A stretch of DNA of 64,000 nucleotides. Origin: Draconibacterium orientale (lineage in GTDB: Bacteria; Bacteroidota; Bacteroidia; Bacteroidales; UBA1556). The stretch is taken from contig DYSI01000001.1 in the NCBI GenBank assembly GCA_020718275.1, positions 23,574 through 87,573 of the forward strand. Reading direction: 5' to 3'. The position numbers were made by a program, and so were the translations under genes. Shown piece after piece: positions 25,401-25,745 of this stretch; position 1 is the stretch's first letter, and each line of letters begins with the position of its first letter. The notes under the pieces were generated by a model. The model made no database searches. It had not been told where the DNA came from and saw only the letters and a program-made list of their open reading frames with translations.

Positions 25401-25414
25401 CTTTGTGGGTATTT

Positions 25415-25452
25415 TGCACACTTCGTTTTAAAATTGTGCACATTTCGATTTT
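25415..25452 (+). repeat. Two direct copies of TGCACAyTTCG(A)TTTT, starts 22 bp apart, at the prophage-host junction
   Basis: Copies at 25415-25429 and 25437-25452. A related inverted copy, AAAACGATAAGCGCTGCA, lies at 24806-24823. Confidence 0.6.
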
Positions 25453-25745
25453 GCGATTATACTTGTAAACTCGTGAATAAGAAAGAAAATATATTTGAAA
25501 AAGCACTTCTGATTTTAGTATTGATTTCATACATCCAACCATTTATGGATGGAAACAAGAGAACAGCAAGAATAGTAAGTAATGCAATTCTAATGAATTA
25601 CAAACATTGTCCCATGTCATTCAGAACAGTTGACTCCGTTGAATACAAGAAAGCAATGTTACTATTTTACGAACAAAACAACATATCGAGATTTAAGGAG
25701 ATATTTATCAACCAGTTCGAATTTGCAGTTAAGACATATTTTTGA
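25434..25745 (+). pseudogene. 5'-truncated Doc/Fic-family (death-on-curing type) toxin remnant
   Basis: QPFMDGNKRTAR matches the Doc-type motif HxFx(D/N)(A/G)NKR, with the catalytic His replaced by Gln. Only ~20 authentic residues precede the motif, versus ~65 in P1 Doc. Composition is AT-rich and host-like. Confidence 0.6.

Follow-up and report, generated by a model that had tools for sequence, protein, structure and literature searches.

A Fic-family gene of Draconibacterium orientale broken at the probable right end of a Mu-like transposable prophage

The window analyzed here is a 64-kb stretch of DNA (64,000 nucleotides) from a genome assigned to Draconibacterium orientale (GCA_020718275.1, contig DYSI01000001.1). 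Its first 25.4 kb very probably belong to a Mu-like transposable prophage whose right end (attR) closes at position 25461, inside a broken Fic-family gene. The element is a Mu-like transposable myovirus prophage of the type found in the Bacteroidota phages fF4, TCUEAP3, and those of Porphyromonas gingivalis, a kind that has already been described. Its biology is as expected for a Mu-like phage, and only its end anatomy and its mismatched flanks are of modest interest. The result is a base-exact right end of a transposable prophage, with probable transposase sites, in an uncultured Bacteroidales genome. A transposable-phage end had been proposed at this place in an earlier reading of the sequence (the original prediction), and the proposal is borne out by transposition genes, by an inverted motif at the left end, and by relatives that share an identical tip next to unrelated flanks. 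The features of the junction, in window coordinates, are:

1-25461, plus strand: right 25.4 kb of the ~32-kb Mu-like transposable prophage
25411-25430, plus strand: R2, inner 20-nt putative transposase-binding site ATTTTGCACACTTCGTTTTA, matrix score 19.0
25433-25452, plus strand: R1, outer 20-nt putative transposase-binding site ATTGTGCACATTTCGATTTT, matrix score 24.3, the top score of 73 kb
25453-25461, plus strand: invariant terminal 9 nt GCGATTATA, with the phage 3' terminus at 25461
25462-25745, plus strand: 3' remnant of a Fic-family gene, 93 codons and a stop, with the motif QPFMDGNKRTAR

Two direct copies of a short motif had been described after the last phage gene, and they are present where they were placed: TGCACACTTCGTTTT at 25415-25429 and TGCACATTTCGATTT(T) at 25437-25452, with a start-to-start distance of 22 bp. 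The full units in register are ATTTTGCACACTTCGTTTT (25411-25429) and ATTGTGCACATTTCGATTT (25433-25451). After the TAA stop of the gene (25398-25400), the order is ctttgtgggt, ATTTTGCACACTTCGTTTTA, aa, ATTGTGCACATTTCGATTTT, GCGATTATA and then, across the phage-host boundary, CTTGTAAACTCGTGAATAAG. R2 and R1 are in direct orientation and on the same helix face, within the last 51 nt of the phage. The degenerate pattern TGYRCAYWTSGNTTT has two matches in the 64-kb window, R1 and R2 only, versus 0.02 expected. This pattern was partly fitted to these two copies, and an independent weight-matrix test was therefore made. The matrix has 20 columns and draws on ten other phages, through their R1 and R2 sites, with the present phage excluded. 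It was run over 73 kb, composed of the window and 9.3 kb of upstream DNA from contig L001 (see below), with 20 shuffles as background. The top five matches, with scores of 18.8-24.3, are R1, a site at L001 3098-3117, the left-end site L1, R2, and the left-end site L2. The best score away from both phage ends is 13.9, and the maximum of the 20 shuffles is 16.4. A related inverted copy that had been proposed at 24797-24823 scores 2.2, which is background.

The two sites are also conserved. The R2 sites of Elizabethkingia phage TCUEAP3 and of ten relatives line up with R2 in register, and the TTTCGATTTT half of R1 is identical in 13 IMG/VR contigs. The position and phasing of the two right-end sites are kept in at least 11 other phages. 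The exact 18-mer of R1 has no match in IMG/VR because the relatives differ at one base. In the right-end alignment, conservation is limited to the last ~48 nt, whichever gene precedes. By analogy with the ends of known transposable phages, R1 and R2 are likely transposase-binding sites of the phage right end.

The 9-nt tip GCGATTATA is unchanged in 11 of 11 aligned ends, and the flanks diverge directly after it. A search of IMG/VR with the 19-mer TTTCGATTTTGCGATTATA returned 13 contigs, all ending in GCGATTATA and all with the two phased repeats. In each of these, an unrelated flank follows the final A, with C, T, A, and G all occurring as its first base. In two cases, one and the same phage is present with two different flanks (L055 versus L058, and L057 versus L060). 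A close relative, L025, whose sheath protein is 88% identical, has the same two repeats and tip and diverges from the window right after GCGATTATA. The GenBank record of TCUEAP3 (OK632026) ends with GGCGATTATA, and the curated genome of P. gingivalis phage010a starts with 5'-TATGGGGCAAGAAACGAAAC and ends with GTCGTTTTGCCGATTATA-3'. Because the contigs diverge right after the shared tip, and because of where the TCUEAP3 and phage010a genomes end, the right terminus is placed at 25461. The onset of Fic homology at 25461-25462 agrees with this tip. In assembly GCA_973787315.1, contig 115 begins at 25462 and contig 30 ends at 25602. Their 141-nt overlap is of the kind left by a branching k-mer graph and is an independent pointer to a boundary between 25461 and 25462.

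Contig ends of other assemblies fall at 25462 and 25602. The end of the Fic cassette is likewise a contig boundary, where two Logan contigs from other samples start, L010 at 25773 and L012 at 25788. Contig ends at both the phage tip and the cassette end suggest strain-level structural variation at both boundaries. An open reading frame (ORF) of 67-71 codons at 25327-25542 on the minus strand is called as a gene in two public assemblies; it is probably spurious because it spans the phage-host junction.

The gene next to the tip is a member of the Fic family. Its 93-aa remnant matches Pfam PF02661 with 41.7 bits (cut-off 24; E 2e-10) and covers model positions 50-93 only, the C-terminal half of the domain. 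The remnant has 631 homologues, with up to 97% identity. Protein homology begins at 25461-25464, and longer homologues reach at least 65-71 residues further upstream. A full-length relative, L146, has 349 codons, with an in-frame stop. DNA homology to the loci L043, L044, and L149 sets in at 25460-25462. Those loci continue upstream as Fic coding sequence where the window has phage, and the Fic gene is therefore cut exactly by the phage tip. The original prediction had spoken of a 5'-truncated doc-type gene that lacks ~45 N-terminal residues. Family and truncation were correctly recognized; the Doc label and the length of the missing part were not. A Doc toxin of ~125 aa with the motif HxFx(D/N)(A/G)NKR was rejected: the Doc model TIGR01550 gives 18.8 bits versus a cut-off of 38.65, the family is ~349 aa long with an N-terminal region, and its motif is QPFMDGNKRTAR. 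In this motif (QPF.DGNKRTAR in the family, QPFMDGNKR here), a Q is found in place of the catalytic H, and the Q is invariant in 20 homologues. No antitoxin gene lies next to the remnant, where the phage occupies the upstream side. Exact-sequence look-ups of the remnant ORF found it not on record.

The left part of the prophage lies upstream of the window, on L001. This contig of assembly GCA_973787315.1 was found by exact-protein look-up and reaches 9,292 bases left of the window, with 5 mismatches in 11,260 overlapping bases. Its features, in L001 coordinates, are:

2175-2780: RHS-repeat fragment of 201 codons, the left flank
2770-9292: left 6.5 kb of the prophage
2779-2798, minus strand: L1, matrix score 20.0
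2868-2887, minus strand: L2, matrix score 18.8, 89 bp from L1
3098-3117, plus strand: candidate third left-end site, matrix score 23.9, second best of 73 kb
4086-6107: transposase, 673 aa (phrog_310 'transposase', E 1e-30)
6125-7060: MuB-like ATPase, 311 aa (phrog_296 'DNA transposition protein', E 1e-34; AAA_22, E 2e-13)

The right-end motif was thus found again at the left end, as L1 and L2 on the minus strand, where the original prediction had suggested looking for an inverted copy. The site at L001 3098-3117, 330 bp inside the left end, has the orientation of R1 and R2 and is a candidate for a third, inverted site of that end. At L001 2770, possibly 2768, the left tip reads 5'-TAAGGGCAT. 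This terminus was placed by symmetry and by the relatives L013, L015, L090, L110, L147, and phage010a. From L001 2770 to window position 25461, the phage totals ~31,984 bp. A search with a degenerate left-end pattern mostly matched an unrelated conserved sequence. A transposase-profile scan of IMG/VR gave 73 loci, none of them on the contigs of the 13 right ends, and left and right ends are unpaired there.

The gene order on L001 is that of a transposable phage. On the host side lie a pyruvate phosphate dikinase gene with its terminator and the RHS-repeat fragment, followed by the inverted end motif. Inside the phage are a repressor-like gene on the minus strand (L001 3392-3796), a small gene in the Ner position, the 673-aa protein, and the 311-aa AAA_22 ATPase. 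These are followed by a 183-aa ORF, a second ATPase, and a DUF3164 gene. The original prediction had proposed extending the sequence upstream and weighing MuA-like and MuB-like genes against an integrase. A DDE transposase and a MuB-like ATPase are found in L001, and no integrase.

The 673-aa protein has no Pfam match and no PDB sequence match by single-sequence or profile search, and for this reason its assignment comes from PHROGs and from the predicted fold. The AlphaFold model of P0121, which is 98% identical, has a mean predicted local distance difference test score (pLDDT) of 75. The best PDB matches of this model in Foldseek are the TnsB strand-transfer complexes (8AA5, 7SVW), the Mu transpososome 4FCY, and the MuA core 1BCO/1BCM, with E-values of 1e-8 to 1e-15. 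Based on the modeled fold, the protein is a predicted DDE transposase of the MuA/TnsB type. No variation is seen at D285, D366, or E398 among 8 and among 24 transposase homologues, and these residues probably form the DDE catalytic triad. The family is composed of >2,200 Bacteroidota proteins, almost all labeled hypothetical, and no Pfam domain is recorded for any of the 120 best transposase homologues (P0121-P0240). Annotation pipelines miss these transposable prophages because the transposase family has no Pfam domain and its members are named 'hypothetical protein'. Standard tools overlook such prophages or place their boundaries wrongly.

The remaining phage genes are consistent with this picture. 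The Mu-family head module that had been noted earlier is present, with Portal_Mu (gp29/DUF935), Phage_Mu_F, Phage_tail_S (G), a weak Phage_Mu_Gp36, and Mu-like_Pro (protease I). Other structural genes, up to 25400, are the DUF2586 sheath, the tape measure, and baseplate genes; a 284-aa baseplate protein has no relatives in IMG/VR. The G+C content is ~0.43 in the prophage versus ~0.35 in the host. It falls from 0.39-0.47 across most of the prophage to 0.33-0.37 just downstream, so that the drop in composition reported past the repeats is real. The last phage gene is:

24834-25400, plus strand: formyltransferase-like gene, 188 aa (phrog_9240, E 6e-13)

This gene has weak, sub-cut-off matches to Formyl_trans_N and to fmt/ArnA-type formyltransferase models. 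It is kept in one end-sharing relative only (L062, 58%). It occupies a variable cargo slot at the right end, where TCUEAP3 has a Mom-like gene and Mu has mom. It may be a cargo gene for DNA or cell-surface modification.

Several points weigh against a simple transposable-phage end. No 4- or 5-bp direct repeat flanks the prophage for either candidate left terminus: the left flank ends with CATCATTA (or with CATCAT) and the right flank starts with CTTGTAAAC, so the short target-site duplication that had been anticipated is lacking. The two flanks do not come from one gene: the left is an RHS fragment and the right a Fic fragment. The phage tips are TA, versus the CA of Mu and Tn7. The family of the transposase is assigned from PHROGs and a predicted fold, with no Pfam or PDB sequence match. 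The exact left terminus, at L001 2770 or 2768, is a placement by symmetry and relatives. Binding of the transposase to the end sites, and its chemistry at the TA tip, would follow by analogy with MuA and TnsB. As for the tips, TA is also found in the curated P. gingivalis phage010a, which makes CA a trait of Mu proper rather than of the present Bacteroidota clade.

Two sequences were tried as target duplications and rejected. ATTATA, at L001 2766-2771 and at window positions 25456-25461, was discarded because 14 other phages have it within their invariant tip. A fixed TA duplication was rejected because the curated P. gingivalis genomes contain the TA, with 4-bp repeats outside.

The 5' part of the Fic gene is also missing. 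It had been expected to abut the left end, and an RHS-repeat fragment is there instead. Neither the 2.8 kb of host DNA on its left side (L001) nor the 38.5 kb of the window on the right side of the prophage contains this 5' part. Together, the missing target duplication and the missing 5' part show that this copy is not a simple undisturbed insertion; they are no argument against a transposable phage. The most economical reading is a later rearrangement beside the prophage, either an adjacent deletion or inversion or recombination between two copies. We lean, if only a little, towards a refined account in which the ends are those of a transposable phage and the junction is secondary. The phage would have inserted into the Fic gene, and then an end-mediated deletion or inversion, or recombination between two copies, would have put the RHS fragment on the left.

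The lack of a 4- or 5-bp duplication, the absence of the Fic 5' part on both sides, and flanks from two unrelated truncated genes argue for a secondary junction. Mu is known to cause adjacent deletions. In GCA_973787315.1, the left junction is assembled through unbroken and the right junction is a branch point. The assembly break between 25461 and 25462, with the overlap of contigs 30 and 115, implies a second upstream context in that sample. Rearrangements beside transposable phages have been noted (PMC7761591). On the other side, no empty site or pre-rearrangement allele was found in the metagenome scans, in a GTDB scan with the neighboring K+ channel, or by the exact Fic-ORF look-ups. The metagenome scans with the right-flank 26-mer and the left-end 22-mer gave no matches each, and thus no empty site and no second left junction. 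In the GTDB scan, the K+ channel relatives are ~70% identical or less and have no dikinase, RHS, or Fic gene upstream, so synteny cannot define the empty site. A metagenome contig might also join the flanks of different strains. Target duplications are reported as 5 bp for Mu (PMC3145075) and as 4-bp bounding repeats for the P. gingivalis transposable phages (PMC10367356), and the present copy differs from the latter in having none. Both ends were obtained for a single relative (L147/L148), with GATTG before the phage and GTTTG after it, again no exact duplication; as a 33.7-kb metagenome contig whose flanks are ~50 nt long, it says little on this point. The duplication rule for this clade therefore comes from the literature only.

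A more specific version is offered tentatively and is the doubtful part of this account. After insertion into the Fic gene, the left phage end would have attacked a nearby RHS locus. The intervening DNA, including the Fic 5' part, would have been deleted or inverted with no target duplication, and the break between 25461 and 25462 would reflect co-existing cells with the other arrangement. With its absent duplication and mismatched flanks, this copy is a candidate for the study of phage-driven rearrangement.

The original prediction had also named two alternatives to a transposable-phage end, an operator for the cargo gene and an integrase attR, and neither found support. If the repeats were an operator or regulatory site for the cargo gene (24834-25400) or for the Fic remnant, their place between the stop of the last phage gene and the Fic frame would be natural, and a TTG-started ORF (25434-25745) does begin within R1. 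However, the last ~48 nt and the tip are kept beside different genes, with the 188-aa gene in a single end-sharing relative. The motif also recurs in inverted orientation at the other phage end, 32 kb away, and a scan for promoters and terminators was no better than shuffles. An operator is thus very unlikely.

The repeats could otherwise be the attR core or the arm-type sites of a prophage that uses a tyrosine or serine recombinase. Short direct repeats beside a prophage-host junction are typical of arm-type integrase sites too, and the junction does lie in a gene remnant. Against this, integrase and recombinase families have no matches in the precomputed Pfam annotation of the called genes of L001 and window 18834-25400 or in Pfam scans of selected genes. 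ARAGORN detected no tRNA or tmRNA, and Rfam gave nothing credible on the window and the junction. Fourteen related ends are joined to unrelated flanks, and the left and right junctions share the inverted end motif only, with no att core or att-type repeat. A recombinase att site is therefore even less probable than an operator. Chance similarity between two copies in A+T-rich intergenic DNA is the least credible explanation: a repeat search of the same 1.5 kb does give many short two-copy families, but the independent matrix scores are far above shuffles, 0.02 pattern matches are expected, and position and phasing recur in the other phages.

Mu is among the closest known systems. Mu end sites (MuA R1-R2-R3 and L1...L2-L3) and gene layout are known (PMC3145075). 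As in attL and attR of Mu, each end has several sites of ~20-22 bp that are inverted between ends, packed on the right and spaced on the left (L1 and L2 are 89 bp apart here). Just inside the left end, after the repressor, come the transposase and an AAA+ ATPase for target selection, and a variable modification or cargo gene is last at the right end; the head genes are of Mu type. Unlike Mu, the transposase has no sequence similarity to MuA in Pfam or PDB sequence searches, and the tips are 5'-TA...TA-3' here versus TG...CA. Only two right-end sites are detected here, and the third strong left site is inverted and lies 330 bp in from the end. The block of head genes runs on the opposite strand, and the phage is 32 kb versus 37 kb for Mu.

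The transposable phages of P. gingivalis (proposed Alisviridae; phage010a_HG1691old, PP754930) and Bacteroides Hankyphage p00 are likewise transposable phages of Bacteroidota with the same gene order. In the P. gingivalis phages, insertion is not site-specific and the termini are conserved (PMC10367356). The ends of phage010a are 5'-TATGGGGCA and TTTTGCCGATTATA-3', with GCCGATTATA as the last bases, and its subterminal repeats contain CGTTTCGTTTT. They closely resemble the 5'-TAAGGGCAT and TTTTGCGATTATA-3' of the present phage. In contrast, the transposases of the P. gingivalis phages and Hankyphage are no more than 25-28% identical to the present one across 59-68% of the query. The repeats are unlike in their outer half, which is ATCCCG in the P. 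gingivalis phages and TGYAC in the present phage. The P. gingivalis phages and Hankyphage are siphovirus-like, with a major tail protein, whereas the present phage is sheathed.

A similar layout is found in Flavobacterium phage fF4, the fF4-like prophages, and TCUEAP3, which are ~32-33 kb long and share a repressor, a DDE transposase, ATPase(s), DUF3164, an inverted head block, and late genes. Phage fF4 has 31,958 bp, close to the ~31,984 bp here, and the fF4-like Bacteroidetes prophages are ~32 kb (PMC7761591). TCUEAP3 and the present phage both end with GCGATTATA and have two phased repeats. MuA-like and MuB-like genes are annotated in TCUEAP3, and its transposase is 45% identical. Unlike fF4 and TCUEAP3, the present phage has a host of a different order, a Bacteroidales/Prolixibacteraceae-like metagenome-assembled genome, and the tail and cargo genes differ. 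The authors of the fF4 work could not sequence its ends (PMC7761591), so the end anatomy described here adds detail for the fF4 group. One 9-nt tip and a two-site layout are common to Bacteroidota transposable phages whose transposases are only 25-45% identical, and insertion sites in metagenomes can be searched for simply with the tip sequence. Tentatively, all members of this Bacteroidota clade of MuA/TnsB-fold transposases, >2,000 mostly unannotated proteins, would act on an invariant GCGATTATA tip that ends in TA and not in the CA of Mu and Tn7.

Tn7 ends have several 22-bp TnsB sites that are packed at the right end and spaced at the left. TnsB structures are also the best structural matches to the transposase model. 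Unlike Tn7 and the CRISPR-associated transposons (CAST), the element is a phage and not a transposon. It has no TnsA, TnsC, or TniQ genes, and its ATPase matches a phage MuB-type PHROG family.

In Mu, the sites L1, R1, and R2 form the transpososome core, and cleavage occurs at the tip (PMC3145075). By analogy with MuA and TnsB, monomers of the 673-aa DDE transposase would bind the end sites and pair both phage ends. Nicking would then occur at the terminal TA-3', with GCGATTATA as the cleavage tip. The MuB-like ATPase would help to choose a target, to which the 3' OH ends would be joined at staggered positions. The outcome would be a phage at essentially arbitrary sites, and in this copy the right tip lies directly against the final 93 codons of a Fic-family gene.

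Beyond the junction, one more feature belongs to the Fic locus:

25746-25778, plus strand: short conserved stretch past the Fic stop codon; alignments with other Fic loci (blastn and MAFFT; L043, L149) end at ~25778

The Q-for-H Fic family (window 25462-25778; L043, L144, L146, L149) is 75-97% identical across records of Flavobacteriaceae, Cyclobacteriaceae, and Chitinophagaceae type. It is often a pseudogene, with the in-frame stop in L146 and an ISL3 transposase gene directly upstream of a truncated copy in L144. In P0113, the truncation point differs. Homology within the family always stops ~33 nt past the stop codon. Given the frequent pseudogenes and this fixed stop, the family resembles a mobile cassette in decay. 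A G+C-rich stretch at 25780-25900, which separates the Fic remnant from the K+ channel gene, matches nothing in Rfam, shows no significant fold (z = -0.5), and is not repeated elsewhere in the sequences compared.

At the left flank, the RHS fragment begins ~30 nt past the dikinase terminator and ends at the left phage tip, and is thus truncated at both ends. Directly after the L2 site, a AGTATAATTT(T) unit is repeated three times in two phages (L001 2885-2916 and L147 173-205). A perfect 12-bp unit is repeated about three times in three related phages, at L001 3130-3164, L147 461-498, and L013 1992-2025. The unit differs per phage (ATTGGGGGGTAG, AAGTTGGGCATT, and TGCTTATACCAA), and the arrays occupy the same relative position, ~350-450 bp inside the left phage end. 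They could be phage-specific protein-binding arrays, for example for immunity.

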